Positions 21,076-40,600 of a stretch of 64,000 nt of DNA are shown piece by piece. The notes beneath the pieces are model-generated. The model had not been told where the DNA came from and did not search any database. It saw only the letters and a list, made by a program, of their open reading frames with translations. Where the stretch lies: assembly GCA_964575455.1 (NCBI GenBank), contig CAZNRX010000007.1, forward strand, positions 2,252 to 66,251. The letters are read 5' to 3'. Position 1 is the first letter of the stretch; each line of letters starts with the position of its first letter. This stretch comes from an uncultured Anaerolineales bacterium (GTDB lineage Bacteria; Chloroflexota; Anaerolineae; B4-G1). Made by a program: the position numbers and the translations under genes.

Positions 21076-21190
21076 GGTCACCCGGGTCGACACTGTCACC
21101 CAGGTCGACACTGTCACCCAGGTCGACACTGTCACCCGGGTCGACGCTGTCACCGGGTCGACGCTGTCACCGGGTCGACGCTGTCACCGG
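21076..21190. repeat. Tandem direct repeat, about 6.5 copies of a 17-18-bp unit GTCGACRCTGTCACC(C)RG, each carrying a SalI-type GTCGAC palindrome
   Basis: Read directly from the sequence. Lies between the stop of the bactofilin-like gene and the start of the URO-D-like gene. Confidence 0.9.
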
Positions 21191-24622: not shown

Positions 24623-24738
24623 TGGTTGCCTAATGTCAGAATAGCGAGTATACTTGTTGGATGGGTAAGGTGCCTAGCGTTGGACGGGTGAGGTGCCTGG
24701 CACGTTTACTCGCGTTCAATTGGGTCGAGGAGACAACT

Positions 24739-26205
24739 ATGTGGCAAGTGTATGACACCCCTACCAGTATCGACGACGCCCTGCGGCTTCTTGCTGAGCG
24801 CGGCCCCAAGGCTCGTATCATCGCCGGTGGGACCGATCTGTTGGTCGAGCTAAAGCGGGGCACTCTAGAGGCTGACAGCTTGATCGACATCACTCGCATC
24901 GGCGGGCTGAATCGCGTAGCGCTGGATGACGGACCTTCCGATTCACGCATTCACATAGGGCCGACCGTGACGCACAACAGCGCTGTGGCCGCGGATCTGC
25001 TGTTCGAACGGGGATACCCGCTGGCATCAGCTTGCTGGCAGGTCGGCACGCCGCAGCTGCGCAATCGCGGCACAATTGCGGGCAATCTGGTCACGGCATC
25101 CCCGGCCAACGACACGATCACGGCGCTCTGGGCTTTGGATGCCAGGCTGAGGTTGAGCAGCGTGGATGGCGAGAGGAAGCTCTCATTCCCCGATTTCTAT
25201 CAAGGGGTGCGTCAGACGGCTTTGGCACCCTATGAGATGGTGACGGACATCTCCTTCCCAGCCCTGCGGCCTAATCAGCGCGGTACGTTCGTGAAGCTGG
25301 CTCTGCGACGGGTACACGCGATCTCCGTGGTCAACGCGGCGGTCGTGCTCTCCTTCGATGAATCGACTGTCACTGGGGCTCGTATCGCGATGGGTAGTGT
25401 GGCCCCCACCGTGATTCGCGCGCGCGAGGCGGAGGGCGCTTTGGTGGGCAGGAAGCTGAGTGCGGAGAGTATCGAGAGAGCCGCGGAGTTGGCTGGGAGA
25501 GCGACGTCCTGTATCGACGACATCCGCTCGGGGGCCGATTATCGTCAGGAGGTCATCACGGTGTTGGTACGTCGTGCACTGGCGTCGCTCCGCGCCGGGG
25601 ACGAGAAAGAGGCATATCCCGACGTGCCGGCGATGCTGTGGGGTACCACGAGCGGCACTTACCCGCGCCTGGCAGGCAAGACGGTGTGTCACCATCGCGA
25701 GGGCCTTGAGCCGATTGAGTTTGTGGTCAACGGTGAGAACGTGGTCATACAGGGAGCCAATCATAAGACGTTGCTGGAGATGCTGCGCCAGGACCTGGGC
25801 CTCACGGGAACGAAGAACGGCTGTGGCGAGGGGGAATGCGGCGCCTGCACAGTCTGGATGGACGGGATCGCCGTGCTGGCCTGCCTGACGCCGGCGCCAC
25901 GCGCCCACGGCACGCACATCGTCACCATTGAGGGGCTTCCGGGAGGGACTGACGTCCTTACTGCAGATGGGCTTCACCCGGTGCAGCAGGCCTTCATCGA
26001 CGAGGGTGCGGTCCAGTGCGGGTACTGCACTCCGGGGTTCGTGATGGCGGGGGCGAACTTGCTGGAGGAGATTCTGGAGCCCACGCGAGAGCAGATCGAG
26101 ATTGGACTGAGCGGGAATCTGTGCCGCTGCACGGGCTACTACAAGATCGTGCGGGCCATTGAGAAGGCCGCGGGTTTTGATCCAGGCCTTCCTCTCGGGG
26201 AGTGA
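24739..26205 (+). CDS. Xanthine-dehydrogenase-family medium/small fused subunit (FAD-binding CoxM-like domain fused to [2Fe-2S] CoxS-like domain)
   Basis: N-terminal FAD-binding molybdopterin-dehydrogenase domain (IIAGGTDLLVELK). C-terminal two [2Fe-2S] cysteine clusters (CGEGECGACTV; CRCTGY). Start re-called at MWQVYDT with a GAGGAG RBS. Confidence 0.85.
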   Translation: MWQVYDTPTSIDDALRLLAERGPKARIIAGGTDLLVELKRGTLEADSLIDITRIGGLNRVALDDGPSDSRIHIGPTVTHNSAVAADLLFERGYPLASACWQVGTPQLRNRGTIAGNLVTASPANDTITALWALDARLRLSSVDGERKLSFPDFYQGVRQTALAPYEMVTDISFPALRPNQRGTFVKLALRRVHAISVVNAAVVLSFDESTVTGARIAMGSVAPTVIRAREAEGALVGRKLSAESIERAAELAGRATSCIDDIRSGADYRQEVITVLVRRALASLRAGDEKEAYPDVPAMLWGTTSGTYPRLAGKTVCHHREGLEPIEFVVNGENVVIQGANHKTLLEMLRQDLGLTGTKNGCGEGECGACTVWMDGIAVLACLTPAPRAHGTHIVTIEGLPGGTDVLTADGLHPVQQAFIDEGAVQCGYCTPGFVMAGANLLEEILEPTREQIEIGLSGNLCRCTGYYKIVRAIEKAAGFDPGLPLGE

Positions 26206-26220: not shown

Positions 26221-26317
26221 GGCTTAGGCTTCGCACGCTTGGTGCTTCACCTCCCTCTTATCCCCCCCGGAGGGAGGGAAGGTGGCGCTGTGGGCACGTG
26301 CAACGCACCGGTGAGGG
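26221..26317. repeat. Intergenic composite repeat: GGCTTAGGCTTCGCACGCTT...CACGTGCAACGCA element carrying a nested C7-GGA-GGGAGGG hairpin core
   Basis: Same flanks as the 'empty' copy at 28285-28327. The core matches the in-ORF insertions. Confidence 0.8.
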
Positions 26318-26335
26318 GCGCGTCAGAAGGGTAGG

Positions 26336-28291
26336 ATGGAGAGGACCGTCCCCACCACCGGCAGTGAAGAGATCTCGCTCTACATGCGCACCTACTACTC
26401 CCTCCTGCGCACCACGGATGAGGTGCAGGTGCGCTCCTTCGTCGAATCACATCTGGGCATGAACTCATCCCTACACGTGGGGGCTCGCGATAAGGTACCG
26501 GACGTCGCGGTGCTCATCTACTGCTCGCTGCGCCTTCCACACGCGATTCGGCAGACCAGGTTGGTGGTGATGGGGCAGTCGGAGCGCGTCTTCGCTCGCC
26601 GCGGGTACGACAAGGTCGAGGAGTGGAGGCCGGTTGGAGCCCCAGGCCGTCGCCGCCGCACGTTCTTTGACGGTCACGAGACGATGGCAGCCTTCATCGC
26701 CAGCGTCTCCGATATCGACGACCTCATTCCGATGTTGACCGCTTTCCAGATTGAGTGGAACAAGATGTATCGGCGTCTGAAGGGTCACTCTCTATTGGAG
26801 AGATTGGAGGTACATCGCGATGTCCCCCCCTCTTATCCCCCCCAGAGGGGGGGAGGGAACACTCGCCCCCAGAGGGGGGGAGGGAACACTCGCCCCCAGA
26901 GGGACGGAGGGAACGCTCCCCCTCAAAGAGAGGTAGGGAATGCTCCCCCCGTCTTATTCCCCCCAGAGGGAGGGAGAGAAGCGCTGCGCCAAGAGATTGC
27001 AGAGGTGCTGGAGCTCAGCCTCGACGATCTAGGCCGCCTGGAATCGATCTGGGATGACCCGGGCCATTCGTTGTTCGATCTGCTGTGCGACGTGGGACGG
27101 GAGCCGAAGCAGTTCGCTGTGCGATTGTTGGCCGGCTCCCGGGTTGACTATCGGAAGGCCACGCGGCACTGGTGGGGTTTCATCGCCGACGCGTCGCCGG
27201 TCGACTTGAGCGAAAGGCCGGTTTACTTCATCTCCAGCAATGTGCACAGCGTGGTGAATATGCTGTCCGGATTTGCGCTACGGCGCGAGAAGGAGCTGAC
27301 ACGCCATCTCCGAGAGAAAGGCGATCATGAGCTGGCGGGTGGGGTGTCACCTGGAGAGTACGCTCGCATTCGCGATGGGGAGACCTCATCCCGGCTCGAG
27401 AATCTCCTCTACTTCATCCTCCGTGACTACATGGAGGTCCATCGCGACGACGAGATATGGGATGAGCGGGAGGAAGAGGAGGCCCTGTGCGGCATCAGGC
27501 ACATCGACAGCCACCACGTCTTTGACGTCGAGGCCCAGGTGATCGAGATGTGCCGCCTGTGCCCGGATTGGCTCGACCCGCGGTTGCGAGTGCCGGAGCT
27601 GGATAGGGCCGATGCAGCCGCTATGCTTCCTGGGCTTCGTGAGAGCGACGCCGTGATCGTCAACATCGACTACCCGCTGGGGATGGGAGCCTATCACATC
27701 CTTTCGCAGGTCGCTACAAGTGTCGATTCGCTTCGGGGCGTGTACAGCCTGGGCAAGGCCGCCACGCTCAACGGCCGCATCGGCGATGTGATGATCCCCT
27801 ATGTCGTTCACGACGAGCACTCCCGCAATACGTATCTGTTCAACAACTGTTTCACCGCCGCCAGCGTGGCGCCCTATCTTGTCCACGGCACGACGCTCGA
27901 CAATCAGAAGGCGATCAGTGTGCGAGGGACGTTTCTGCAGAACGAGCGCTATATGGATGTCTTCTACCGCGAGGGGTACACAGATATTGAGATGGAGGCC
28001 GGGCCATACCTCTCAGCTGTCTACGAGGCGGTGCGCCCCTCCCGCCATCCAACCAACGAGATCGTCACCCTCTACGCGGACACTGTGCCATTTGACGTCG
28101 GGATCATACACTACGCATCGGATACGCCGCTGGAGAAGGGCGGGTGGGATCAACCGAGGAACCTCGGTGCACAACGTCTCTCTTACTTCGGCGTGGATTC
28201 CACGTATGCGGCCACCGTGGCCATCCTGCGCCGGGTGCTGTGGCTGGAGACGCAGCGTGGGCAAGGGAAAGGTGCGTCGCATTGGGCTTAG
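26336..28291 (+). CDS. AMP-nucleosidase-like protein (PNP/UDP phosphorylase-fold C-terminal domain) with a long N-terminal extension
   Basis: The C-terminal VIVNIDYPLGMGA...LGKAATLNGRIGDVMIPYVVHDEH aligns by eye to the Amn catalytic region (ITLVNIGVGPSNA...IGHCGGLRESQAIGDYVLAHAYLRDDH). The N-terminal 250 aa are unassigned and contain a repeat insertion. Confidence 0.5.
   Translation: MERTVPTTGSEEISLYMRTYYSLLRTTDEVQVRSFVESHLGMNSSLHVGARDKVPDVAVLIYCSLRLPHAIRQTRLVVMGQSERVFARRGYDKVEEWRPVGAPGRRRRTFFDGHETMAAFIASVSDIDDLIPMLTAFQIEWNKMYRRLKGHSLLERLEVHRDVPPSYPPQRGGGNTRPQRGGGNTRPQRDGGNAPPQREVGNAPPVLFPPEGGREALRQEIAEVLELSLDDLGRLESIWDDPGHSLFDLLCDVGREPKQFAVRLLAGSRVDYRKATRHWWGFIADASPVDLSERPVYFISSNVHSVVNMLSGFALRREKELTRHLREKGDHELAGGVSPGEYARIRDGETSSRLENLLYFILRDYMEVHRDDEIWDEREEEEALCGIRHIDSHHVFDVEAQVIEMCRLCPDWLDPRLRVPELDRADAAAMLPGLRESDAVIVNIDYPLGMGAYHILSQVATSVDSLRGVYSLGKAATLNGRIGDVMIPYVVHDEHSRNTYLFNNCFTAASVAPYLVHGTTLDNQKAISVRGTFLQNERYMDVFYREGYTDIEMEAGPYLSAVYEAVRPSRHPTNEIVTLYADTVPFDVGIIHYASDTPLEKGGWDQPRNLGAQRLSYFGVDSTYAATVAILRRVLWLETQRGQGKGASHWA
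26824..26978 (+). repeat. In-frame repeat insertion: C7TCTTATC7-AGA-G7AGGG hairpin core with a 3x tandem 27-bp subunit
   Basis: Encodes PPSYPPQRGGGNTRPQRGGGNTRPQRDGGNAPPQREVGNAPPVLFPPEGGRE inside the AMN-like ORF. Read directly. Confidence 0.85.
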
Positions 28292-28327
28292 CGGCTGGCG
28301 CTTGGCACGTGCAACGCAGCGTTGTGA
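28285..28327. repeat. Intergenic GGCTTAG...CACGTGCAACGCA element ('empty' copy lacking the C-rich core)
   Basis: Sequence identity to the flanks of the 26221-26317 element. Confidence 0.7.
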
Positions 28328-28351
28328 GCCGCTGGAGATGAGGGATTCACT

Positions 28352-30760
28352 ATGACTACGTTTGTTGGACAGTCCGCCGCTCGCTTGGATGCGCGCGCCA
28401 AGGTCACGGGCGAGGCAAAGTACCCCGGCGATTTCGCTATGGAGGGTATGCTCCACGCCAAGATCCTCTTTGCCGGTCGGCCGCACGCTCGGGTGTTGAG
28501 CATCGACACGTCCGAAGCGGAGGATGTGCCGGGCGTGGTAGCGATCTTCACGGCCAGAGACGTGCCGGTGAACGAGTATGGCCTGCAGACGCGGGATCAA
28601 CCGGTGCTGTGTGGCCCCCCCCCTCTTGTCCCCCCCGGAGGGAGGGAGGATAGTGGCCCCTCTTCTCGTAACCCCCCTGGAGGGAGGGAGGATGGTGGTT
28701 CCCTCTCTCTTAACTCCCACGGAGGGAGCCCCCCCCTCGTATCCCCCCCGGAGGGAGGGAGGGAGGTGCCAGGAACTGATGTGGTCCGCTTCGTCGGTGA
28801 TCAGGTGGCTCTTGTGGTGGCGGAGAGCGAGGAGGCTGCTGCCCGCGCTCGAGGTCGGATCCACGTCGAGTATGAGGAATTGCCTTTCGTGACCGATCCC
28901 TTCCGAGCTCTTGAGCCAGACGCGCCGCAGCTCCACCCTGACCGACAGCCGAATGAAAGCCATCCGGAGTTGAGCACCGAGGGTAATCTCATCTGCCATC
29001 ATCAGATCCGCAAGGGCGACATGGACGCCGGGTGGGAGGCCGCGGACATCGTTGTCGAGGGTGAGTACCGAACGCCCGCTCAGGAGCACGCCTATCTGCA
29101 GCCGGAGGCTGGTCTCTCTTACATCGACGATCAGGGTCGTGTCACGGTGGTGGTGGCCGGCCAATGGACGTGGGAGGATCAACAGCAGATCGCACACGCA
29201 CTGGACCTACCACCAGAGCAGGTCCGAGTGATCTACCCGGCCATCGGAGGTGCCTTTGGTGGGCGCGAGGATATGTCCGTGCAGATCGTGCTGGCTCTGG
29301 CGGCCCATCGTCTGCAGCGCCCGGTCAAGATCGTCTGGAGCCGCGAGGAATCGATCGAGGGGCACTGCAAGCGGCATGCGATGTGGTTCCACTGCAAATG
29401 GGGCGCCACCCGGGAGGGAAAGCTGGTCGCCGCCGAGGTTCGAGTGATCGCCGATGGGGGCGCTTACTGCTACACCACCAACAAGGTGCTGGGCAACACA
29501 GCGATTACGTGCACGGGTCCCTACGAGTTTCCAAACGTCAAAGTTGACGTGGACGGCGTCTATACCAACAATCCACCGGCCGGGGCCTTCCGGGGCTTTG
29601 GAGCGCCGCAAGGCATCTTCGCTGCCGAGATGCAGATGAACAAACTGGTGGCCAAAATGGTTGGGGCGCTGGACGTGGACCCGGTTGGGCTGCGGGTCAA
29701 GAACTTGCTGCGTGATGACTCCCTGACCACGGTGCGCACCCCGCTGCCGGGTGGCGTCAGCCTGGTGGAGGTCACCCGGCGCTGTGCCCGTGCCATCGGA
29801 TGGAAGCAGACGGATGAGGAGGCGCCTGAGGCGCCATCGGGGTCGTCAGCGGCAGACACCCGCGAAGCGATTCGCAGTAAGCCCGACAGCGGCATTGGGC
29901 TGGCCGTTGGCTTCAAGAACGTCGGATTCTCCTTCGGGTATCAGGAGAGTTGCTGTGCCAGGATCGAGCTGCAGGGTGAGGAGGAGATCGAGCGAGCTAC
30001 CGTCAGCATTGGAAGTGCCGACGTGGGGCAGGGGGCTCATACCGTGATCCGGCAGATGGCGGCTGAGGCGCTTGACGTACCGTTGACGCGGGTGCGCATG
30101 GAGACATCGGACACGGGTACCAGCCCAGGCAGTGCCGGCTCCACGTCCGCATCCCGGATGACCTTCATGGCGGGCAACGCTGTGCGGAAGGCAGCGGGGG
30201 AGGTGCTGAACCGCTGGCGGAAGGGAGAGCGTCCGGCCATCACCGAGCAGACCTATCTGGCCCCAAGCACCACGCATTTTGATCCAGAGACGGGCGAGGG
30301 TCTGCCCAATTTCGCCTACGGGTACGTGGCGCAGGCCGTGGAGGTCGCGGTCGATGTGGAAACCGGCGAATTGGAGATCCGACGCGTCGTCTGCGTCGAT
30401 GACGTGGGCAAGGCGGTCAATCCTCAGCAGGTTGAAGGGCAGATTGAGGGGGGTGTGGCGCAGGCGGTGGGCTGGGCCACGTGTGAGAACTTCATCACCG
30501 ACGAGGGACGCGTGCTCACGCCACATCTGAGCACGTATCTGATCCCCACCATCGCCGACGTGCCGCGAAGCGTTGAATCGATCGTCGTGGAGAATCCAGA
30601 TCCTTGCGGCCCCTGGGGTGTGCGCGGGATGGGTGAGATGCCCTTCATCCCCCTGGCCCCGGCCCTGGTCGCTGCCGTCCACGACGCGACTGGGGTGTGG
30701 ATTGACGAGCTACCGCTGACCCCAGAGCGCGTGCTATGCGCCTTGAAGGGTCGTTCGTAG
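28352..30760 (+). CDS. Xanthine-dehydrogenase-family molybdopterin-binding large subunit (CoxL/XdhA-like)
   Basis: 802 aa with Ald_Xan_dh_C and C2 domain motifs (GGAFGGRED; GxGxPQG active-site region AFRGFGAPQG). Has a 55-aa in-frame insertion at 28613-28774. Confidence 0.85.
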   Translation: MTTFVGQSAARLDARAKVTGEAKYPGDFAMEGMLHAKILFAGRPHARVLSIDTSEAEDVPGVVAIFTARDVPVNEYGLQTRDQPVLCGPPPLVPPGGREDSGPSSRNPPGGREDGGSLSLNSHGGSPPLVSPPEGGREVPGTDVVRFVGDQVALVVAESEEAAARARGRIHVEYEELPFVTDPFRALEPDAPQLHPDRQPNESHPELSTEGNLICHHQIRKGDMDAGWEAADIVVEGEYRTPAQEHAYLQPEAGLSYIDDQGRVTVVVAGQWTWEDQQQIAHALDLPPEQVRVIYPAIGGAFGGREDMSVQIVLALAAHRLQRPVKIVWSREESIEGHCKRHAMWFHCKWGATREGKLVAAEVRVIADGGAYCYTTNKVLGNTAITCTGPYEFPNVKVDVDGVYTNNPPAGAFRGFGAPQGIFAAEMQMNKLVAKMVGALDVDPVGLRVKNLLRDDSLTTVRTPLPGGVSLVEVTRRCARAIGWKQTDEEAPEAPSGSSAADTREAIRSKPDSGIGLAVGFKNVGFSFGYQESCCARIELQGEEEIERATVSIGSADVGQGAHTVIRQMAAEALDVPLTRVRMETSDTGTSPGSAGSTSASRMTFMAGNAVRKAAGEVLNRWRKGERPAITEQTYLAPSTTHFDPETGEGLPNFAYGYVAQAVEVAVDVETGELEIRRVVCVDDVGKAVNPQQVEGQIEGGVAQAVGWATCENFITDEGRVLTPHLSTYLIPTIADVPRSVESIVVENPDPCGPWGVRGMGEMPFIPLAPALVAAVHDATGVWIDELPLTPERVLCALKGRS
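28613..28774 (+). repeat. In-frame repeat insertion: about 4 tandem ~40-bp units CCCTCTTNTC-C6-7-NGGAGGGAGGGAGGAT, with a C10 run
   Basis: Encodes GPPPLVPPGGREDSGPSSRNPPGGREDGGSLSLNSHGGSPPLVSPPEGGREV between the conserved DQPVL and VRFVGD blocks. Confidence 0.85.
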
Positions 30761-30847
30761 TCAGACACGCAGCCGTGCGGAGTGCTGTCCAACCGCAATG
30801 GTTCTCGTGGTTGGTAGTCAGGCACGGAGCCGCGCGGAGTGCCGTCC
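30758..30847. repeat. Two imperfect ~33-bp direct repeats (TAGTCAGRCACGSAGCCGYGCGGAGTGCYGTCC) flanking a CCAACC/GGTTGG hairpin, starting at the XDH large-subunit stop codon
   Basis: Read directly. Candidate terminator or leader structure between the XDH operon and the histidine kinase gene. Confidence 0.6.
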
Positions 30848-30877
30848 GTATATTGAAGGTACTGAAGGCAATTCACT

Positions 30878-33334
30878 ATGAGGCGACGATATCTTTCTGC
30901 TATCTATCTCGTAGCTGGCCTGGTGGTGTTGGGGCTTCTGATCTGGCTGACTGCCAACGCTAGCATGGTCACCCCACCCACCCCGGAAGAGCTCCTGTCA
31001 GGGGCGCTGTTCATCGCGATGATCATCTTCACCGATGTCTTCGGCGTGCGCCTGGCGGGAGGCGTCGTGTCGCTGCTGCCGATGACGACGGTTGCGGCCT
31101 ACCTGGTGATGGGGCCGATAGCGACGGGATGGGCTGCGTTGATAGGCGCCGGCGTGCACGCCGTGCTCCGCTACCGCTGGGCCGAGCGGCTGGGACTCCC
31201 GCGGGTGACGGGCATCCCATCGATCATCACCATAGGCGCGGCGAACGCAGTGGCACACACGGTGAGCGTGTTAGTGGGCGGTGTGGTCTTCCAGGCACTT
31301 CAGGGGGAGATACCCTTAACTCGAATTGATCCCCAGGATGTCCTGGCGCTGGTGTTGTTCGCTCTCACCTACTTGCTCTTCAATCACCTGGCCTTCCTGC
31401 CCGCCATCGCGGCGCGGGGTCGGGAGTCGCTGCGACACTACGCGCACTCGCTCCCCAACCTGATCTTCTACGAGGGGAGCCCGTTGACCCTGGCGCCTCT
31501 GATGGCGTTGATCCACACGCGGCTGGGTGTGGTGATGTTTGCCCTTTTCGCCCTCAGCATGGTCGTCGCTTCGTTGATCACGCGCAGCTTGGCGCAGACC
31601 AGTCAGCGACTCCAGCGCCGGGTGAGAGAGCTGCGTGGCCTCCAGGCAGTGGGGCAAGCTCTCAGCGCCAACCTGGACATCGAGGCCGTGGTGTCGGCGA
31701 TCTACGAGCAGGTTGCCCGGCTTATGCCCGCTCGCAACTTCTACGTCTCCCTCTACGATCCGCAGGTGGATGAGGTCTCGTTCCCGCTGGCCGTGGAGGA
31801 GGGAGAGCATGTGCAGTGGCGCTCGCGCCGAACGGGCTCCGGCCTCACGGAATACGTCCTGCACAGCCGGGAACCCCTGTTGATGAGGAGCGATGTTGGG
31901 GCTAAGCTCGACAAGCTTGACGTCGACTCCATCGGCAAGCCGGCCGAGTGTTGGCTTGGCGTGCCAATCTTGGCAGCGGACGAGGTGCTTGGCGTCATAG
32001 CTGTCCAGTCGTACGATGCAGCGGAGGCCTACGACCTACCCCATCAGAGGGTGCTCACCACCATCGCTGCCCAGGCCGCTGTGGCCATCCAGAATGCCCG
32101 CCTCTACGAACGCACCGACGAGGCGCTGGCCCGCCGGGTGCAGGAGCTGGACTCCATTCTCAGAACCGCCAGGGAGGGCATCATGCTGCTGGATACGGAC
32201 TGGCGTATCGTGGCGGCTAACCGCGCGCTAGCTGACCTCTTGGACGTCGCTCAGCTAGAGCTGCTTGGACAGATCTTCGAGACCCCTGGAGGAGAGGATA
32301 ACCAGCCTCTGGTGAGGCTGCTGGGATACAGCGAAGAGGATCTGAGGAGCGACTGTCAGAGCCTGAGGGACGCAGGGGAGGGCGAGGCCGCTGACCCAGT
32401 GGCTGACGCTCCGGTGGCCGCCCACCCGCACGTCGGGGTCAAGCAGGCGATCGTCACTCTGAGCGCATCGGGTCGCCACATCGAGCGGACGTTGACGCCG
32501 GTGCGAGGCCAGAAAGGCGTCATCACTGGTTGGCTGCTTGTCCTCCGAGACGTCACCGAAGAGATCGAGCTGGGGCGCCTGAAGGACGATATGACGTACA
32601 TGTTGGTCCACGACCTGCGCTCGCCACTCACGGTGTTGGGCAACAGCTTCACCCTCATGGAGGAGGCTTTCGCCGAGGACGACTCAGAGCTGTTCAAGAC
32701 CTTTATCGACATGGCGCAGCGGAGCAGCGATCGCATGTTGGGCCTGGTCAACGGCCTTCTCGACGTCAGCGAGCTCGAGAGCGATGAGATCGATTTGAGC
32801 CTTGAGGCCGTGGATCCGAGAACCTTGCTGCAGGAGACTGTCACACAGCTGTCTCCGCTGGCGGCCTCGGCTCAGATCACGATCGAGGTCTCCGTCGCCG
32901 CCGACCTCCCGCCACTCCACGTGGACGTGGGATTGATCAGACGTGTGCTGAACAATCTCATCGACAACGCCATCAAGTTCGCCCCCGATGGCAGCTGGGT
33001 CCGGGTGTGGGCTCGGCCTGACCCAGAGAGCGCACGGCTAGAGGTCCAACCACGGGAGATTCGGCTGCATCAACTGCTGATCGGCGTCAGCGATGAGGGC
33101 CCTGGCATACCGGAGGAGGAGCAGTCCAAGCTGTTCGAGAAGTTCCACCGTGTCTCCTCGGTGACAGGGCGCCGTTCCGGGAGCGGGCTGGGGCTCCCCT
33201 TCTGCAAGCTGGCCGTGGAGGCGCACGGGGGTAGGATCTGGGTGGAGAGCCCCTCCGGCGGAATCGCGTCCACCGAGGTGGGAAGCACGTTCTTGATGAA
33301 GCTGCCTACGGTACCATCCGATTCATCACGCTGA
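30878..33334 (+). CDS. Sensor histidine kinase (N-terminal ~8-TM domain, GAF, PAS, HisKA, HATPase_c)
   Basis: N-terminal hydrophobic helices; GAF region ending ...IQNARLYERTDEA; H-box HDLRSPLTV; N/G boxes NLIDNAIKFAP and GSGLGLPFCK. Confidence 0.8.
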   Translation: MRRRYLSAIYLVAGLVVLGLLIWLTANASMVTPPTPEELLSGALFIAMIIFTDVFGVRLAGGVVSLLPMTTVAAYLVMGPIATGWAALIGAGVHAVLRYRWAERLGLPRVTGIPSIITIGAANAVAHTVSVLVGGVVFQALQGEIPLTRIDPQDVLALVLFALTYLLFNHLAFLPAIAARGRESLRHYAHSLPNLIFYEGSPLTLAPLMALIHTRLGVVMFALFALSMVVASLITRSLAQTSQRLQRRVRELRGLQAVGQALSANLDIEAVVSAIYEQVARLMPARNFYVSLYDPQVDEVSFPLAVEEGEHVQWRSRRTGSGLTEYVLHSREPLLMRSDVGAKLDKLDVDSIGKPAECWLGVPILAADEVLGVIAVQSYDAAEAYDLPHQRVLTTIAAQAAVAIQNARLYERTDEALARRVQELDSILRTAREGIMLLDTDWRIVAANRALADLLDVAQLELLGQIFETPGGEDNQPLVRLLGYSEEDLRSDCQSLRDAGEGEAADPVADAPVAAHPHVGVKQAIVTLSASGRHIERTLTPVRGQKGVITGWLLVLRDVTEEIELGRLKDDMTYMLVHDLRSPLTVLGNSFTLMEEAFAEDDSELFKTFIDMAQRSSDRMLGLVNGLLDVSELESDEIDLSLEAVDPRTLLQETVTQLSPLAASAQITIEVSVAADLPPLHVDVGLIRRVLNNLIDNAIKFAPDGSWVRVWARPDPESARLEVQPREIRLHQLLIGVSDEGPGIPEEEQSKLFEKFHRVSSVTGRRSGSGLGLPFCKLAVEAHGGRIWVESPSGGIASTEVGSTFLMKLPTVPSDSSR

Positions 33335-33464
33335 CGCAGGTCTCGTTCCTTCGAAACGGGGGGCGCCCCGGAGCACAGTCGCGGCCCTGAGGTGCGAGCA
33401 GGCCTTCCCATCACGCGCTGTTCCTGCACGGTCGTTCCCTTTCTTCGAGTGTTCGACGCTCTGG

Positions 33465-34337
33465 CTACCAGCGCAGTTCCACAGGATCGCCCGGCTGGAG
33501 GCCCAGTCTCTCGGCGCCGCTTCCCTCGCGCACGGCGATCTCCAGGTGCCCGCCGCTGCCCACCAGGGCCAGTGCGTCGCCGGGTTCAACGTCGGCGTAG
33601 GTACGGCGCACGCTCTCTATCTCCCGACCCTCGGTTTGGGGGCCACCGGAACCAAGGGCAACTACAGCCTCGTCGGCCGTAAGACGAGCCCGCTCGTCGC
33701 TTTGCTGTCGAAACGCTGGCTCCAGTGAGAGCTCGTCCCCTCTCCAGAGAAGACGCCCTATGCTCGTGATCGCGTTGCCGAAGTGGTCCGTGTGGAGGAC
33801 TTCGCCGCCGATGTGACGGGGGCCTGTCTCCAGGCGTGGAGGTGGGAGCACGACCGGGTCGGGCACTGTCGGGCCGAGTTCGTCGACGGGGACGCCGGCC
33901 GCCAGGTGGGCAGCAGCGGGGGCAAAGATGTCGCGCCCGTGGAAGGTCTGGCTCACCAGGGGGAGCCGATGGCGCGGTTCAGTGAGCTCGACGGTGGTCT
34001 CCACGGCCCCCTCGGCCATGACGTAGCTGAAGACGCCGTTGTCGGGTCCGACGAAGGTGCCGTGGGAAAGCCGGACGGCGATGGGGCGACGCGCGCTGCC
34101 GACGCCGGGGTCCACCACCACCAGATGGACGGACCCCGAGGGGAAGAAACGATACGCGGTGTGGAGAACGTACGCCGTCTGGCGGACGTTCTGACGTGTG
34201 ATGTCGTGCGTGATGTCCACCAAACGAGCATGCGGGGCGATATTGAGCATGACGCCCTTCATCGTTCCCACGTAGCCATCGGCGATGCCGAAATCTGTGG
34301 TCAGAGTGATGATCGGCCATTTATTCATACACTGCAT
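33465..34337 (-). CDS. SAM hydroxide adenosyltransferase / SAM hydrolase (DUF62, fluorinase/chlorinase-like family)
   Basis: N-terminal ITLTTDFGIADGYVGTMKGV matches the family signature. About 290 aa from MQCM. Confidence 0.75.
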   Translation of the reverse strand: MQCMNKWPIITLTTDFGIADGYVGTMKGVMLNIAPHARLVDITHDITRQNVRQTAYVLHTAYRFFPSGSVHLVVVDPGVGSARRPIAVRLSHGTFVGPDNGVFSYVMAEGAVETTVELTEPRHRLPLVSQTFHGRDIFAPAAAHLAAGVPVDELGPTVPDPVVLPPPRLETGPRHIGGEVLHTDHFGNAITSIGRLLWRGDELSLEPAFRQQSDERARLTADEAVVALGSGGPQTEGREIESVRRTYADVEPGDALALVGSGGHLEIAVREGSGAERLGLQPGDPVELRW

Positions 34338-34500
34338 TCTACCTACGGCTGCAGGTCTCGTCAACTCACTCCGGCTTGACCGTCGGGTGGGTGTCGGTAT
34401 AATTGATCTTGAACACTCACGTTGTCTACACCATAGACGCAATATCCTCGTACACGGCACCCGTCACCGATATCTGAGATGCACCGAGGGAGGTTTGGAG

Positions 34501-34812
34501 ATGGCGAACATACTCGAAAAGACGTTGCTCATGGGATTGGGCGTCTTCACCCTGACGCGCGAGAAGGTGAGGGAGGCCGTCAACGAGCTGGTGGAGGAGG
34601 AAGGGGTCGAGCCCGAGGAGGCTCAGAAGCTGGCCGATGCCTTGGCGGCCAAGGGGGAGCAGGAGCGCGAGAAGCTCCGCGGCGAACTCCGCGACATGGT
34701 CCGCCAGGAGATGAGCCGCGTCAAACCTGTCACGCAGAGGGAGTTCGAGGCGCTGAAGCAGAAGGTAGACGAGCTGGCAGACAAGATCGACACCCTGGTG
34801 GAGTCGGAGTGA
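34501..34812 (+). CDS. Phasin-like / PHA-granule-associated-type coiled-coil protein
   Basis: 103-aa charged helical protein (MANILEKTLLMGLGVF...), GGAGG RBS. The track ORF has a spurious 72-aa leader. Confidence 0.45.
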   Translation: MANILEKTLLMGLGVFTLTREKVREAVNELVEEEGVEPEEAQKLADALAAKGEQEREKLRGELRDMVRQEMSRVKPVTQREFEALKQKVDELADKIDTLVESE

Positions 34813-34846
34813 GGAAGAAGGCCATGGTGACGGCGGGCCGAAGGAC

Positions 34847-35746
34847 ATGACGGCGTCAAGGGAGAGCGAGGGGAGACCCAAGATCGGCCTGGCTCTCAGC
34901 GGAGGAGGCGCGCGGGGTTTGGCCCACATCGGCGTGCTCAAGGTGCTTGAGCAAGAAGGGATGTCGATCGACTTGCTGGCGGGCACCAGTATGGGTGGGG
35001 TGGTGGCAGCGGCCTACGCCGCTGGGCTGACGCCTGGTTTTATGGAGCAGGAGGCCATGCGAATGACCAACCCGCGTCGGCTGCTGTCCCTGGCCGATCC
35101 AACCCTGCCGCGACGCGGGTTGTTTGAGGGACAGAAGGTGACCGAGTATCTGAGCCATCATCTGGGGGAATGCACCTTCGACAGCCTTCGGCGCCCTCTC
35201 AGCCTGATCGCCGTTGATCTGGAGGCGAGTGAGGTCGTGACGTTGAACGAGGGCCAGGTGATCGACGCCGTGCGGGCGACTATCGCTCTGCCAGGGCTCT
35301 TCAAACCGGTGGAACGGGAGTCACAGAGCGAGTCGCGGAGCGACAGGCAACTGCTTGTTGATGGAGGGCTGCTGGACAACCTTCCCGCCGACGTGACACG
35401 ACAGATGGGGGCTGACGTTGTGATCGCCGTGGATGTGATAGGCGACAACAGCACCTTCTCCGCGATGATCAAGACGTTACGTGAGCGTCGCTACGTGCCC
35501 GGCGGGCTGGCCAGTACCTTTGAGGTCATGCTGCGCTCGCTGGACGTCATGATGAAGGAGATCAATCGGCGCTGCCTGGTGGAAGCTGCTCCTGAGATCA
35601 TTATTCGCCCCGACGTCCCGCCGGACGTCAGCGTGCTGCTCGGCTTCACGCGGGCTGCCGATACAATAGCTATTGGGGAGAAGGCTGCTGTAGAGGCCCT
35701 TTCGGACATCCGGAGCGTGCTGGAGGCGACGGCGCCGGCAGTATGA
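34847..35746 (+). CDS. Patatin-like phospholipase
   Basis: GGGARG oxyanion motif, GTSMG (GxSxG) nucleophile, DGG catalytic Asp motif. Confidence 0.85.
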   Translation: MTASRESEGRPKIGLALSGGGARGLAHIGVLKVLEQEGMSIDLLAGTSMGGVVAAAYAAGLTPGFMEQEAMRMTNPRRLLSLADPTLPRRGLFEGQKVTEYLSHHLGECTFDSLRRPLSLIAVDLEASEVVTLNEGQVIDAVRATIALPGLFKPVERESQSESRSDRQLLVDGGLLDNLPADVTRQMGADVVIAVDVIGDNSTFSAMIKTLRERRYVPGGLASTFEVMLRSLDVMMKEINRRCLVEAAPEIIIRPDVPPDVSVLLGFTRAADTIAIGEKAAVEALSDIRSVLEATAPAV

Positions 35747-35905
35747 GCGGTCTGACACGCCAGGGCGACAAGGCGATAAAGCGAGAAGGCGCCAAAGCGA
35801 CTATGACAGACAGGAACAAGCCGCGGAGCTTCTGCAGCCGTGAGGTTTCGGCGCGTACGGCTTGCTTCGCGAGCAGATAAGTCCTAGGCCGCGCACGAGG
35901 CTACG

Positions 35906-37678
35906 GTGGTGAGAGGTCCTCAACGTACGATCCGGCATCTGAGGCGCTATCAAGAGATTGCGGAGGTCTTCATACGTCACGGCCTCGGTGAATTGGTCGA
36001 CCTGCTGGAACTGCAACCTTATCTGGCGTTTCCCCGCCGGCTGGTGCGCCAATGGCGTGAGGAGGCACCGCCGCTTGGCGCTCCTCAGCGCCTCCGTCTG
36101 GCGCTGGAGGAGCTGGGGCCGACGTTCATCAAGTTGGGTCAGGTACTCAGCACACGCCCCGATCTGATACCTCCCGCCTACGTCGCTGAACTGGCCAAGC
36201 TGCAGGATACCGTCCCCCCGGAGCCTTGGGAGCCTGTTCGAGAGCAGATCGAATCCGAGCTGGGCAAGCCGGTCACAGAGCTGTTTGCCATCCTTGAGGA
36301 GGAGCCCATCGCGGCCGCTTCGTTGGCCCAGGTCCACTCGGCGACGCTGTATGAGCCCCCCCCTCTTGTCCCCCCCAGTGGGGGGGAGGGTGACGGTGCT
36401 CCCCATCCTGTCCCTCCCAGTGGGGGGGAGGGTGCCCCTGTGGTCGTCAAGGTACAGCGGCCCGACATCGAGGAGGTCATTGACGTCGATCTGGAGATCC
36501 TTCAAGATGTGGCGGAGCTGCTGGAGGGACGTGTGCCACTGGCAAGGATGTACGACCTGCCGGAGATCGCGCGGGGGTTCGCTGCGACGCTGCGCATGGA
36601 GCTGGACTTCTATCGAGAAGCCCATAACGCTGAACGCTTTCGAGAGAACTTCGCCGGCAACCCCTATCTGTACGTGCCTGAGGTCATCGGCTTAGCTTCG
36701 CACGCTGGGGACTTCACCACACGGCGCGTGCTGGTCATGGAACGCATCGATGGCATCAAGATTGACGACGTGAAGGCCCTGGACGAGGCAGGGTACGACC
36801 GACATCAGATCGCCGTCCACGCAGCCCAGATGGTGCTCAAGGAGGTGCTCGAAGATGGCTTCTTCCACGCCGATCCGCACCCTGGCAACTTCGTCGTCAT
36901 GCCTGGGGAGGTCATCGGTGCGATGGACTTCGGGCTCGTTGGGCATTTGAGCTATGGTCTGCGTTCCGATCTGACGCGTCTTTACATCGCTGTTGTGCAG
37001 ATGGACACACAGAGCGTTGTCGATCAGCTCATCCGTATGGGCGCGACCACGAAGTCCGTCAATAGAGTGGCCCTTCAGCGGGATCTGGCTCGTCTTTTGC
37101 GGAAGTACCGCGGGCTGCCGCTGCAGGCGATCAGCGCCCAGGAGGTGATGCGGGACGCGACCCCTGTTGCCTTTCGTCATCATCTGCGGTTGCCTTCGGA
37201 GCTGTGGCTGTTGGGTAAGACGCTGGCCATGTTGGAGGGGGTAGCCCTCAGGCTGGATCCCGATTTCGACATCATTGCCTTCTCCAGGCCTCACATCCGA
37301 CGTTTCCTGATGCAGTTAGTCCTTCCACGTAATCTAGCGCCAAGGCTGATCAAGGCAGGGGGAGATTGGAGTGACTTGTTCAGCCTCCTGCCCCGCATCG
37401 GCTCACAGCTTCTGGTCCAAGCCGAGCGAGGGGAGCTTGGGATGACGCTTGAGCACAAGGGCCTGGATCAGGCATTGAGCCGTCTGGATCGGTCGGCGAA
37501 TCGCATCTCGCTGAGCGTTCTCCTGGCTGCCCTCATCGTGGGGCTGGCTTTGGTCATTCCGGCCTTCAACCTGGCGGAGGAGGTTGGTTTGGCGACCATT
37601 GTGGTCATTGTCGGCTTTGTAGGCGTCAGTTTGTTGGGTATTTGGCTCGCTTTCTCCATTTGGCGTTCAAATAGGTAG
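35906..37678 (+). CDS. UbiB/ABC1-family atypical protein kinase
   Basis: ABC1 domain (LGPTFIKLGQVLSTRPDLIP...AAASLAQVH...KVQRPDI...HADPHPGN). Two C-terminal TM helices. Contains in-frame repeat insertions. Confidence 0.85.
   Translation: MVRGPQRTIRHLRRYQEIAEVFIRHGLGELVDLLELQPYLAFPRRLVRQWREEAPPLGAPQRLRLALEELGPTFIKLGQVLSTRPDLIPPAYVAELAKLQDTVPPEPWEPVREQIESELGKPVTELFAILEEEPIAAASLAQVHSATLYEPPPLVPPSGGEGDGAPHPVPPSGGEGAPVVVKVQRPDIEEVIDVDLEILQDVAELLEGRVPLARMYDLPEIARGFAATLRMELDFYREAHNAERFRENFAGNPYLYVPEVIGLASHAGDFTTRRVLVMERIDGIKIDDVKALDEAGYDRHQIAVHAAQMVLKEVLEDGFFHADPHPGNFVVMPGEVIGAMDFGLVGHLSYGLRSDLTRLYIAVVQMDTQSVVDQLIRMGATTKSVNRVALQRDLARLLRKYRGLPLQAISAQEVMRDATPVAFRHHLRLPSELWLLGKTLAMLEGVALRLDPDFDIIAFSRPHIRRFLMQLVLPRNLAPRLIKAGGDWSDLFSLLPRIGSQLLVQAERGELGMTLEHKGLDQALSRLDRSANRISLSVLLAALIVGLALVIPAFNLAEEVGLATIVVIVGFVGVSLLGIWLAFSIWRSNR
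36355..36442 (+). repeat. In-frame repeat insertion: 2 units of C7TCTTGTC7-AGT-G7AGGG
   Basis: Encodes PPPLVPPSGGEGDGAPHPVPPSGGEGA between the conserved AQVH and VKVQRP blocks of UbiB. Confidence 0.85.
36689..36718 (+). repeat. GGCTTAGCTTCGCACGCT-family element inside the UbiB ORF (in-frame, about 9 aa GLASHAGDF)
   Basis: Matches the start of the intergenic elements at 26221 and 28285. Sits between the conserved PEV and TTRRVLVME blocks. Confidence 0.6.
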
Positions 37679-37688
37679 GGGTCTTAAG

Positions 37689-40600
37689 ATGGGTGAAAAC
37701 AGGATTCTAGCTGAGGAGACGTATCGTAGCCTGATTGAGCGGGCGAACGACGGCATCGTCATCATTCAGGATATGCAATTCAAGTACGTCAACCCCCGGC
37801 TGGCGGAGATCCTTGGCTGTGGCGTGGAGGAGCTTCTCGACAAGCCCTTCGCCGACTACGTACATCCCCAGGATCGGGCCAAGGTCGTTGATCGATACCA
37901 GCGGAGAATGCGTGGGGAAGGACTCCCCGGGACGTCGCCTATCCCCACGATCTACCAGGTGAAGCTCAGGCGCAAGGACGGCAGCGACGTCCTGGTGGAA
38001 CTCAACGCTGGCCTCACGACCTACCAGGGAGAGCCGGCTGACCTGGCGATTGTCCGCGATATCACCGATCGTGGCTTAGCTCCGCACGCTAGGCGACTGG
38101 AGCAGGAGGTCAGGAAGCGTCAGCTGTATCTGGAAGGGGTTCTGGAATCCACACCCGACGCCATCGTCACCTTGGATCCCGATCATCGGGTCTCGGAGTG
38201 GAACCCGGGAGCGGAGAAGCTGTTTGGGTACTCATCGGAGGAAGCGGTTGGGCGCGATCTTGACGCGCTAATTGCCGGGCCGGATCCGGAGATGTTCGAG
38301 CAGGCGACCAAGCTCACGTGGCACGTCCTGGCGGGGGAGGTGGTTCCTCGTGCCGAGAGCACGCGGTACCGAAAGGACGGCACCCCGGTGAATGTGATCC
38401 TGGCCGGGGCCCCAATCGAAGTCGAGGATGAGTCGGTCGGCGCGGTGGTGGCCTACACCGACATCACCCAGCGCAAGCAGGTTGAAGAGGCGCTGCGAAG
38501 GCGTACCCAGCAGCTGGAAGCGCTGCGGGACGTGGGACTGGATATCATAGGCGAGTTGGAGCTCGACGAGTTGCTGCAGAGCATCGTGAAGCAAGGCTGT
38601 CGTCTGCTGGGCGTCAAAGGCGGCAGTCTTTATCTCGTTGACGGCTGTCGCCAGGGTAAAAGGCCTTCGTCCAGGTATCTCGTAGGCACGAAGCGTGCGA
38701 GGCGGCGTCACGCACCGGAGGCAGAAGGCGGCCTTGAGCAGGTGGTCAGCTATGGATACAAGAGAGATCGCACAGGGTCGAGAATTACACGGGGCGAAGG
38801 AACCGCCGGCAAGGCCTGGCAGGAAGGCAAGCCTGTGGTCGTGGACGACTATCACCATTGGGAGGGACGAGCAGCCGAGTGGGAGGATGAGGAGCTTACT
38901 GCTTCCCTCGCTGTACCGCTGAAGCACGGCGACCAGATCGTTGGCACGCTTGGTTTCGACGCTGTGACCGAGGACAGATCCTTCGACGAGGATGACGTGT
39001 GGTTGACCTCGCTCTTCGCCAATCAGGCCACCATCGCCATTGAGAACGCTCGTTTGTATGAGGAGACCGCATATCGCCTCGCCGAGACGGAGGCGTTGCG
39101 AAAGGTTATGCTGGCGGCCGCTTCGACCCTCGACCTGGATCAGCTGCTGGAGCGGTCGCTGCGGGTTATCCATCGGGCACTGGACATCAAGCATCTGAGC
39201 TTCTCGTTTCCGGATGATTCGGGGGAGTTCATGGTGGTCCATCCTTCGCAGATTGGATTCTCCGTTCCACCCGGCGAAGCTCTCCGGCTTCCTATGGACG
39301 CCAGCGTTGCCGGTCGCGCCTACGTCAACCAGAGCCCGGTCTTGATCAAGGACACCTCCGAGACGCCCTACTATCACGAGTACAAGCCCGAGATGCGATC
39401 GGAGTTGACGGTGCCGGTATTCATAGGAGACGAGGTGGTCGGCGTGCTGAATGCCGAGAGCCCAGAGGTGGGCGCGTTTGATGAGGGCACGCTCCACATC
39501 TTTGAGGCCGTCGCCGCCCAGCTGGCGACGGCGATGGAGAACGTCCGGCTACACGAGGAGACCGAGCGGCGGGCCTCTCGGCTGAGGGCCGTCAACCGCG
39601 TTGCGCGCAGGGCGAACTCGCTGCTGCATCTGGATGATCTTGTTGAGGCGGCATACCAGGAGATAGATTCGACCTTCGAGGTGGATGCCTTCTTTCTCGC
39701 TCTCTACGATAGGGAGGAGGATGAGCTGGACTTCCGCCTCTCGGTCGACGAGGGTACGAGGGAGCCCCCTCTTCGACGGCCCTTGGAGCCTGGGCTGACT
39801 GCTTCTGTCGTCAGCAAGGGCGAGCCCCTGCTCATCTACGACTATGTCTGTGAGCAGGAAAGGGAGGACCTGCCTCCAGCGGAGACCTGGGGCACAGGCA
39901 AGATCTCACGCTCGTGGCTGGGCGTGCCGATGCGAGCTGCAGGGGAGGTGACGGGGGTCATCTCAGTGCAGGCTTATCGTTCCTTTGCCTACGATGATGA
40001 GGACGAACAGCTTCTTTCCACCATCGCTGACCAGGTAGCCATGGCGTTGGAGAAGACACGCCTGTATGAGGAATCTCAGAGACGGGCCAGCCAGGCCGCG
40101 CTGCTGTATGAGGTAGGGCGACACGTAAGCAGTGAGCTGGAGCCCGATATACTGCTCGACACCATCGTCTCCTCCGTGCGAGAGTCATTTGACTATCACA
40201 ACGTGATCCTTATGTTGCTTGATGGATGGGTGGGGGCCGCCGGGGAGGGGCTGAAGCCCTCGCCGCGGGAGGGGGGATACACGTCATCCCGGGGATACAC
40301 GTCATCCCATGACGAGCACGCTGCGGAGGAGCGCCTCCGGATGCAATCCATCGCCGGTGCCTACGTTGGTATTCTCCCCCCTGATATCTCGTTGGCCATC
40401 GGAGAGGGTATGATAGGCTATGCGGCGTTGAGCGGTGAGACACAGTTGAGCAATGATGTGAGCACAGATCCTCACTATGTACGTAAGGCGACGGAGAACA
40501 CGAAGTCTGAGCTCGCTGTGCCGATCAAGAGCGGCGACAGGGTGATCGGCGTGCTCGATCTGCAGGATGATGAACTAGGGGCTTTTGATCAGTCGGATGT

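Follow-up and report, generated by a model that had tools for sequence, protein, structure and literature searches.

Small dispersed repeats (SDRs), which Elhai is said to have described in 2008, are reportedly a set of families (SDR1-8) of 21-27 nucleotides (nt) in the Nostocaceae, among which SDR4, 5 and 6 are said to share a predicted secondary structure. To our knowledge, a transposase for SDRs has never been identified, and we know of no explanation, since their description from Nostoc, of how repeats of ~20 nt move. Rickettsia palindromic elements (RPEs) and miniature inverted-repeat transposable elements (MITEs) are ~100-150 nt or longer, and they are palindromic or carry terminal inverted repeats and target duplications. 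SDRs are short mobile elements, and none were detected in other cyanobacteria that are enriched in HIP1 (PMC5861425). Repetitive extragenic palindromic (REP) sequences are imperfect palindromes that are extragenic and form inverted doublets beside the gene for a RAYT (REP-associated HUH tyrosine transposase) (PMC3116915, PMC3733652, PMC6006769), and a conserved tetranucleotide, GTAG or CGTC, tags one of their ends (PMC3733652). Here, we describe a motif that recurs in a 64,000-nt stretch of DNA (hereafter the window; all coordinates are window positions) from an uncultured Anaerolineales bacterium affiliated with the Chloroflexota (GenBank assembly GCA_964575455.1, contig CAZNRX010000007.1). 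This motif is a real DNA unit of 17 or 18 bases, GGCTTAGCTYCGCACGC (final T optional), with precise copies within and between genes of many Chloroflexota genomes. Judged by analogy, the closest counterpart of the unit appears to be the SDRs of Nostoc and its relatives, yet it does not appear to be a member of that family.

The core of the unit comprises 17 nt, 5'-GGCTTAGCT(T/C/G/A)CGCACGC-3', and a frequent extra T extends it to 18 nt. A first-pass annotation of the window had proposed a small repeat family with intergenic, nested, and in-frame copies; the sequences that it listed were all checked and are present, and the family itself is borne out. With up to three mismatches allowed, the 18-mer has two matches in the window (0.03 expected), and its 11-nt right half, CTYCGCACGCT, has three (0.13 expected). 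GGCTTAG on its own is not enriched in the window (5 matches versus 4 expected). Two copies reside in open reading frames (ORFs), one encoding a UbiB/ABC1 kinase (35906-37678) and the other a giant PAS/GAF histidine kinase of 2673 amino acids (37689-45710):

36689..36706, + strand: 18-nt unit GGCTTAGCTTCGCACGCT, in frame in the UbiB/ABC1 kinase gene, read as GLASHA (residues 262-267); delimited by orthologue alignment and by the DNA of three empty sites.
38073..38090, + strand: 18-nt unit GGCTTAGCTCCGCACGCT, in frame in the histidine-kinase gene, read as GLAPHA (residues 129-134), in a linker that separates PAS domains.

These two copies are read in the same frame and differ in sequence exactly at the variable position 10 of the unit. 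Both are present and unaltered in an independent assembly (L001, Logan SRR7048220; L numbers denote loci or contigs that were compared with the window). When UbiB was aligned with 14 orthologues, 13 of them exhibited a clean six-residue gap, the insert being common only to the window and its closest relative, L110 (protein P0002), which is syntenic with the window at 92-93% DNA identity. At the DNA level, the empty UbiB sites of L111, L164, and L165 read GAG-(G/A)TC-A(G/T)(C/G) followed directly by TGG-G.., and the filled sites of the window and L110 read GAG-GTC-ATC, the 18 nt, and then GGG-GAC. The histidine-kinase unit constitutes 18 nt that are extra in the window relative to L110, L111, and L164. 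In L110, the empty site consists of ...TCGC joined to AGGCGACTGG, and L111 and L164 have the same junction (CGC joined to A(A/G)GCGA); the filled site of the window, ...TCGT-GGCTTAGCTCCGCACGCT-AGGCGACTGG, is longer by exactly 18 nt. Comparison of filled and empty kinase DNA revealed no target-site duplication, and the sole other change is synonymous and adjacent (CGC to CGT). Since the kinase copy is absent from L110, it was inserted after the split from L110 and is the youngest copy; the UbiB copy is present in L110 and was therefore inserted before that split. A homologue search with the N-terminus of the kinase returned distant fragments only. The third case comes from another genome, where an acyl-CoA synthetase (L036) aligned to PDB 8weu has a six-residue gap at GLASHA.

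Collectively, these comparisons show that new copies arise as precise blocks without target-site duplication. Copies as such are located in both coding and non-coding DNA. It is unlikely that all of the apparent insertions are deletions in the comparison genomes, because 13 UbiB orthologues and the PDB homologues are without the segment. The first-pass annotation had conceded that the matches inside ORFs could be chance similarities; each proved to be an exact 18-nt block that orthologues are without. Its in-ORF copy in the giant kinase is thus real, with the unit at 38073-38090 absent from three relatives. Of the stretch that it had assigned in UbiB (36689-36718), 36689-36706 is the unit, whereas 36707-36718 (GGGGACTTCACC) is native coding sequence, corresponding to the WDFT/GDFT region of UbiB orthologues and kept in those that have no insert. 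The predicted peptides across the in-ORF units are ...VPEVIGLASHAGDF... and ...DITDRGLAPHARR... A low-confidence AlphaFold model of UbiB (mean pLDDT 50) places both inserts in stretches of coil where pLDDT is below 50, and the UbiB inserts might conceivably occupy surface loops.

To survey the family outside the window, we scanned one genome per species (185,579 species) for the pattern GGCTTAG-N0-1-CTYCGCACGCT and recovered at least 108 loci, a result that decisively answers the earlier concern that copies elsewhere might not be found. Among the matches listed, 93 loci were from 21 assemblies labelled Thermoflexales, Anaerolineae/Anaerolineales, Chloroflexia, Dehalococcoidia, or Chloroflexota, and a single Thermoflexales metagenome-assembled genome (MAG; SKLM01) alone contributed nearly 40. 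Other phyla accounted for 15 loci among the matches listed, nearly all of them single matches and about as many as expected by chance. The loci labelled Chloroflexota contained 248 units (≤3 substitutions) in 671 kb versus 3 in shuffled sequence. At 16 of the 17 unit positions conservation is ≥96%, and only position 10 varies (T 176, C 48, G 20, and A 4). Some insertions are common to orthologues in different MAGs (L006/L023/L086 and L014/L041). Separately, the orthologous loci L002 and L071, near the start of an ORF for an rve-type transposase, form a filled/empty pair in non-coding or 5' sequence: L071 carries a second, inverted unit, GCGTGCGGAGCTAAGCC, 16 nt downstream of the one common to both loci, and this second unit is absent from L002 (net +17 nt).

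A search of the window and 17 array-bearing loci against Rfam yielded nothing at gathering thresholds, and a permissive scan of one array yielded matches at the level of chance. Origins from tRNA or tmRNA were rejected, there being no such genes in the window, as was an origin from phage, since only 1 match was detected in 2.9 million viral contigs. In the literature, we encountered no paper with the unit sequence or with such (in-frame) repeats in Chloroflexota or Thermoflexus, and an earlier description is still possible.

Units of the Chloroflexota occur singly, in head-to-tail arrays, or joined to a tail, TGGCACGTGCAACGCACC, as in the window. Array periods are 17 nt (GGCTTAGCTTCGCACGC), 18 nt (with the final T), and occasionally 19, 21, or 27 nt. 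All 24 of the period-17 arrays are intergenic (0/24 are inside ORFs), and all six of the period-18 arrays away from contig ends are inside long ORFs. Three or more 17-nt units place TAG (forward) or TAA (reverse) in every frame, so the split between the two periods fits a frame filter. In-ORF units in loci labelled Chloroflexota use all four stop-free frames (~27 GLASHA, 6 LSFAR, 4 QRAKLS, and 4 ACEAKP), with the ORFs called heuristically and a few of them possibly spurious. One in-ORF array in L055 (CAZEBW010000031, 5658-5756) has a 27-nt period and encodes DGLASHAID four times in an ORF of 2062 codons, and a pair with a 21-nt period in L006 (1490-1540) encodes GLSSHAT-GLASHAT in a protein that, assigned by eye, is probably related to the alpha subunit of electron transfer flavoprotein (ETF). 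In the group of MAGs to which L055 and L006 belong, the unit nearly always follows an Asp, Asn, or Ser codon and precedes Ile or Thr.

The consensus of the tail is degenerate, TGGCA[C/A]GTGCAA[C/G]GCAYC. In L016 the tail is exactly that of the window (...GCACGC-TTGGCACGTGCAACGCACC), others read GGGCAAGTGCAAGGCA or GGGCAGGTGCCAGGCACC, and in L038 a variant follows the units; a tail-like motif comes after 8 arrays, versus a background of 0.035%. Two readings of the tail were rejected. As an independent high-copy repeat it is at about chance level, with 51 metagenome matches to the exact 17-mer, almost all in unrelated contexts, and as a parS-like site centred on CACGTG it agrees by eye at only ~10 of 16 positions with the parS consensus. 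Many arrays are preceded by a 32-nt unit, GGCT(T/C)AGGGCTCGCTGCGCGAGCT(T/G/A)GGCACGC, that has a 6-bp hairpin and both termini of the 17-mer (GGCTTAG...GCACGC). The unit ends are reiterated separately in a Chloroflexia MAG, as (GGCTTAGC)n-TTC-(GCACGCT)m between the arms GGGCGC...GCGCCC, and inverted copies of the unit ends flank a unit in L070 and L092.

The remaining copies and relatives of the unit in the window are as follows, where c1 and c2 denote two copies of unit plus tail:

26221..26239, + strand: c1 unit GGCTTAGGCTTCGCACGCT, 19 nt, with one extra G relative to the in-ORF copies; intergenic.
26240..26292, + strand: segment nested in c1, with the C-rich hairpin CACCTCCCTCTTATCCCCCCCGGAGGGAGGGAAGGTG at 26248-26284; corresponds to the gap in the c1/c2 alignment; fold computed.
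26293..26313, + strand: c1 tail GGCACGTGCAACGCACCGGTG, ending 23 nt upstream of the DUF6909 start codon (26336).
28285..28324, + strand: c2, a degenerate unit fused to a tail, GGCTTAGCGGCTGGCGCTTGGCACGTGCAACGCAGCGTTG; GGCTTAGCGGCTGGCGCTTGGCACG at 28285-28309 and the tail GGCACGTGCAACGCAGCGTTG at 28304-28324; no nested hairpin.
35859..35877, + strand: weak relative GGCTTGCTTCGCGAGCAGA; a short palindrome (in L110, GCTCGC-TTC-GCGAGC), similar to the core of the 32-nt 'head' unit.
38643..38726, + strand: in-frame insert in the kinase gene with a tail-like stretch and no intact unit; L110 (12698-12800) has (GGCTTAGCTAACGCACGC)x5 and then GGGGAACGTGCAAGGG, and L111 has nothing.

The first-pass annotation had placed a full copy with a nested hairpin core after the stop codon of the xanthine dehydrogenase (XDH) FAD/FeS ORF (24661-26205; Pfam FAD_binding_5, CO_deh_flav_C, and Fer2), and c1 is indeed present there, starting 15 nt past the TGA. 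It had also described c2 as an empty copy right after a stop codon. The empty copy exists, but the TAG in its own GGCTTAG (28289-28291) is the stop codon of the DUF6909 ORF (26336-28291); Pfam matches DUF6909 as far as residue 635 of 651, and the final ~15 codons extend into c2. The 15-nt sequence GGCACGTGCAACGCA occurs exactly twice in the window, each time ~30 nt upstream of the next ATG. Once 26240-26292 is taken out, c1 and c2 can be aligned over GGCTTAG, GC..TTGG, and an identical stretch of 15 nt that widens with mismatches to ~24 nt, which supports the reading of c1 as the same element as c2 plus ~47-50 nt holding the C-rich hairpin. Since an uninterrupted unit plus tail, ...GGCTTAGCTTCGCACGCT-TGGCACGTGCAACGCACC, occurs in another MAG (L016), c1 is therefore composite, having received a C-rich hairpin unit by insertion. 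A recent origin of this filled/empty pair does not hold, as both c1 and c2 are already at the same sites in L110, where the orthologue of the c1 unit is GGCTCAGGCTTCGCACGCT. From its L110 counterpart c1 differs by 5 substitutions and 1 indel in ~97 nt, and c2 differs at a similar rate, which equals the divergence across the genome (~93% DNA identity); c1 and c2 are old copies under no visible constraint. The hairpin in c1 of L110 has GGCGCTTGGCAC to its left and GGCGCTGTGGGCAC to its right, a pair that resembles a 12-14-nt duplication; in the window this duplication is less clear.

The suggestion that the repeat serves as a target or carrier for the hairpin element is half of the picture: the hairpin nests in c1, but the converse also occurs: L009 and L094 have the unit within the loop of a long C/G-rich hairpin, and L058, L063, and L076 have it within other hairpins. 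Of the degenerate copy that had been placed at 35861-35905, a weak relative exists, but it shrinks to ~19 nt (35859-35877) and is unlike the 17/18-mer; both it and c2 resemble the 32-nt, hairpin-bearing unit of other genomes. The kinase site at 38643-38726 is hypervariable, and the five GGCTTAGCTAACGCACGC units of L110 at this site read RGLANA. In the window, then, c1 is a unit plus tail split by an inserted C-rich hairpin, c2 is a decayed unit plus tail that ends DUF6909, and the copies in UbiB and the kinase each represent one insertion of 18 nt.

The C-rich hairpin family, CCCCCCTCTT(A/G)TCCCCCCCGGAGGGAGGGAGG, also has tandem versions of 27 and 42 nt and is located at 26825-26984, 28606-28770, and 36346-36438 in addition to 26248-26284. 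It occurs in frame in DUF6909, the XDH molybdopterin subunit (XDH-Mo), and UbiB, adding at least 25 residues (e.g., PPLVPPSGGEGDGAPHPVPPSGGEG in UbiB) that 13 orthologues are without. At the XDH-Mo site, L110 has a different, non-repetitive in-frame insert of ~40 residues.

Among 69 non-redundant single copies, the base preceding the unit (-1) is C in 50, T in 14, G in 2, and A in 3 (93% pyrimidine), and the base following the 18-mer (+1) is C in only 2. The depletion of G at -1 is a real bias, because third codon positions are often G in these genomes. For the unit (-0.7 kcal/mol, z +1.5), the unit plus tail (-8.1 kcal/mol, z +0.4), and three units plus tail (z +0.1), predicted folds are no more stable than those of shuffled controls, and the same is true of c1 and c2, except for the nested C-rich hairpin. 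The idea that the unit always sits in a hairpin loop was rejected: it does so in some genomes only, and the mean flanking-stem score is 3.3 versus 3.1 in controls. The 111 ORFs located up to 2.5 kb from arrays belong to ordinary housekeeping genes; among the top 25 of 61 families, all-against-all clustering and Pfam searches of ORFs that flank units and arrays revealed no recurrent mobility gene, and rve_3 (2 ORFs) is the sole transposase-like domain.

We consider that the unit is probably a non-autonomous, very small dispersed repeat, copied precisely next to a pyrimidine without target duplication and then expanded by slippage, with a trans-acting enzyme behind the copying. Units are near-identical across distant lineages while old copies drift normally, and we therefore infer that new copies continue to be made. 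Their source would be constrained in sequence and would most likely be an enzyme that acts in trans, recognises the conserved termini, and nicks or copies DNA; candidate intermediates would be single-stranded DNA, RNA with reverse transcription, or template switching. Arrays would grow by slippage and by insertions placed beside a unit already there; because ...CGC is also how the unit ends, an enzyme with weak target preference would also insert next to existing units and so build arrays. Selection would then act as a filter, such that only multiples of 3 nt in one of the four stop-free frames persist in ORFs and period-17 arrays persist only between genes. More tentatively, and with some doubt on our part, the GGCTTAG...GCACGC termini might be the substrate of an undescribed, Chloroflexota-wide copying system (a nicking/HUH-type enzyme or a reverse transcriptase) that acts on the smallest actively mobile DNA unit known, in which case short in-frame peptides in housekeeping proteins (UbiB, xanthine dehydrogenase, ETF, and acyl-CoA synthetase) would be a by-product.

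Several observations weigh against our preferred reading of the unit. Retrieval of loci by an exact pattern means that unit conservation is partly built in; the locus count is a lower bound, with no copy number per genome; and the intact units in the window are only two. The clean junction comes from only one very recent insertion, that in the kinase, where the adjacent base differs (CGC to CGT) and the breakpoints are hence uncertain by ~1 nt. The empty UbiB allele already holds GCTGGG, which equals the unit end plus its usual right flank, and right flanks of the form GG(G)CGA are ~10-fold enriched (9/116 versus a background of 0.8%). Units were not found to be biased in orientation with respect to local GC skew or the direction of genes; a lagging-strand mechanism with single-stranded DNA might have produced such a bias. 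An enzyme, donor locus, or intermediate was likewise not found, the gene screen having covered the ORFs that flank arrays.

The flank enrichment and the GCTGGG of UbiB fit microhomology-guided copying as well as they fit targeting by an enzyme, and a second explanation dispenses with dedicated machinery: in template switching or break repair guided by microhomology, a broken or stalled end similar to the flank of some existing copy would anneal to it, copy one unit, and return, and slippage would generate the arrays. This reading gains from the empty UbiB site, AGCTGGG, from the native right flank of the kinase insertion, AGGCGAC, which is identical to the flank after the L049 array, and from the existence of sub-families with longer common right flanks, namely ATCGCC (L014, L042, and L055) and TGGCGAGTC (L003 and L054). 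Direct and inverted duplications of unit ends around units (the Chloroflexia MAG, L070, and L092) and the lack of a transposase linked to arrays among the families shown for flanking ORFs point the same way. It leaves unexplained, however, why the same 17-mer, with 16 invariant positions, recurs across Anaerolineae, Thermoflexales, and Chloroflexia while old copies drift; left junctions exhibit a preference of 1 nt only, and many right flanks (e.g., ACC, ACG, and ATT) are unlike those of known donor copies. We think it unlikely, and we prefer copying by an enzyme because the unit hardly varies between assemblies that are labelled as different classes, while old copies drift normally. The first-pass annotation had called the element REP-like, and some features do recall a REP or REPIN (paired REP) element mobilised by a RAYT: the unit is short, abundant, and partly intergenic, it enters mosaic combinations with other small repeats in the manner of bacterial interspersed mosaic elements (BIMEs), the related 32-nt unit has its hairpin, and in one Chloroflexia MAG the unit lies between the arms GGGCGC...GCGCCC. 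That label was not borne out. There is no palindrome, with folding no better than shuffled and flanking stems that are not enriched; there is no GTAG/CGTC tag, the unit starting with GGCT and ending with ACGC(T); copies lie within ORFs; arrays run head to tail rather than as inverted doublets; and no Y1 transposase recurs among the families shown for array-flanking ORFs. A REP-type origin is thus very improbable.

We hold it equally improbable that the unit is a selected cis-element rather than a mobile one, whether as a binding or regulatory site for a protein, a signal for DNA uptake or recombination, or a GLASHA peptide module. Selection would account for the very strong conservation of 16 of 17 positions, for the similar distance (~30 nt) of the tail from the DUF6909 and XDH-Mo start codons, and for GLASHA as the commonest frame in ORFs. 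But copies arise as block insertions and not through point mutations, c1 and c2, including the tail, diverge from L110 at a neutral-looking rate (CACGTGCAACGCA to CACGCGCAACGGA), and the exact tail is at chance level in metagenomes. Moreover, all four open frames are used, period-17 arrays are unable to encode a peptide, host proteins and insertion sites are mutually unrelated, and the ~3 copies per 64 kb are far below the density of uptake sequences. The shortness of the matches and the location of many arrays at contig ends of short-read MAGs might instead suggest chance similarity or an artefact of assembly or sequencing. This reading is effectively refuted by the maintenance of reading frames, by the recovery of both in-ORF copies in the independent assembly L001 and of the UbiB copy in L110, a different dataset, and by the concentration of matches in one phylum, in 21 assemblies from different projects that include a 4.18-Mb contig (CAVWCQ010000008); the match statistics of the window and the single match among viral contigs also speak against it.

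Other small repeats abound in this lineage. Aligned over 18 kb, the window and L110 differ by 17 indels of ≥6 nt, 13 of them multiples of three and most of them small repeat units, including C-rich units of 27 and 57 nt, the 18-nt unit described here, a 90-nt array of five GGCTTAGCTAACGCACGC in L110 only, and a 36-nt stretch that comprises two copies of another 18-nt unit. Tandem Repeats Finder detected periods of 12-42 nt in the window (18 in three arrays, 27, 42, 16, 15, and 12). The three arrays with an 18-nt period are unrelated to one another and are located at 21072-21188 (ACGCTGTCACCCGGGTCG x6.6), 40273-40308 (GGGGATACACGTCATCCC x2), and 61422-61456 (GGCCCGTGGATGCCTTCC x1.9); at the second of these sites L110 has two extra 18-nt units, and at a site matching window position ~41395 it has an inserted 18-nt near-palindrome, AGGATGGACGTCATCCTG. 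Conceivably, insertions of 18 nt are favoured in this lineage.

A third small repeat, GTAGTCAG(G/A)CACG(G/C)AGCCG(C/T)GCGGAGTGC(C/T)GTC, starts with GTAG as do GTAG-tagged REPs. It is present as direct copies (30757-30789 and 30814-30846, + strand) in the spacer before a GAF kinase gene (30878) and as an inverted copy (63472-63509) 32 kb away; across the direct copies (30757-30846) the window is 45 nt longer than L110. After the GAF kinase gene, a 111-nt intergenic segment (33353-33463) is absent from L110. The spacer between the Patatin and UbiB genes contains an 8-nt tandem repeat, (GCGA(C/T)(A/G)A(A/G))n, at 35760-35801 that is present with changes in L110 and absent from L111, along with a 20-nt segment specific to the window and one of 17 nt specific to L110.

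Units of this kind have consequences beyond their own spread. Conserved enzymes can tolerate, and keep acquiring, in-frame insertions of six residues, which are a source of variation in protein length. The units also supply stop codons, extend ORFs (as in DUF6909), and inflate the apparent divergence of orthologues, and their arrays, many of which lie at contig ends, break short-read assemblies.

Among described systems, coding minisatellites or variable number tandem repeats (VNTRs) share with the unit a head-to-tail arrangement, periods in ORFs that are multiples of three, and copy numbers that differ between close relatives, as where L110 has five units and the window has none intact. Unlike in VNTRs, slippage accounts for the length of an array but not for how one and the same unit came to be inserted singly and precisely at unrelated loci and in many genomes. 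DNA uptake sequences and uptake signal sequences (DUS/USS) are over-represented throughout a clade, where they originate from point substitution and biased uptake and reach a density of about one per kb, whereas the unit arises as 18-nt block insertions at ~3 per 64 kb in the window. Like RPEs and in-ORF MITEs, the unit persists in essential genes as an in-frame peptide at tolerated positions. It differs from them in its 18-nt length (~50-600 nt for MITEs), in ends (GGCTTAG/GCACGC) that are not inverted repeats, and in the lack of a duplication at the kinase site. With REP, BIME, and REPIN elements it has in common that it is short, abundant, and non-autonomous, forms mosaic intergenic combinations, and receives insertions of other elements; it is set apart from REPs and REPINs, which are 20-40 nt long and form a stable hairpin, by the lack of a palindrome or GTAG/CGTC tag, by ~41 in-ORF copies in Chloroflexota loci, and by direct-repeat arrays.

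The likeness to SDRs extends further. Both are on the scale of tens of nt or less, are too small to encode a protein, and are dispersed in many near-identical copies; both are present or absent at orthologous sites in related genomes (here, kinase and UbiB); and both nest in small repeats, form tandem repeats, have occasional in-frame copies in genes, and are without an identified transposase. The unit is distinguished, by description rather than by sequence, in its length (17/18 versus 21-27 nt) and its host phylum (Chloroflexota versus the family Nostocaceae), in having no predicted hairpin, in contrast to the structure reported for SDR4, 5, and 6, and in its own long head-to-tail arrays with a split between periods of 17 (intergenic) and 18 (coding). 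A second, apparently unrelated family of mobile repeats of ~20 nt in another phylum would provide comparative leverage on the question of how such repeats move, and this one offers clean filled and empty sites, termini that are sharply conserved, and copies that number in the hundreds in public MAGs.

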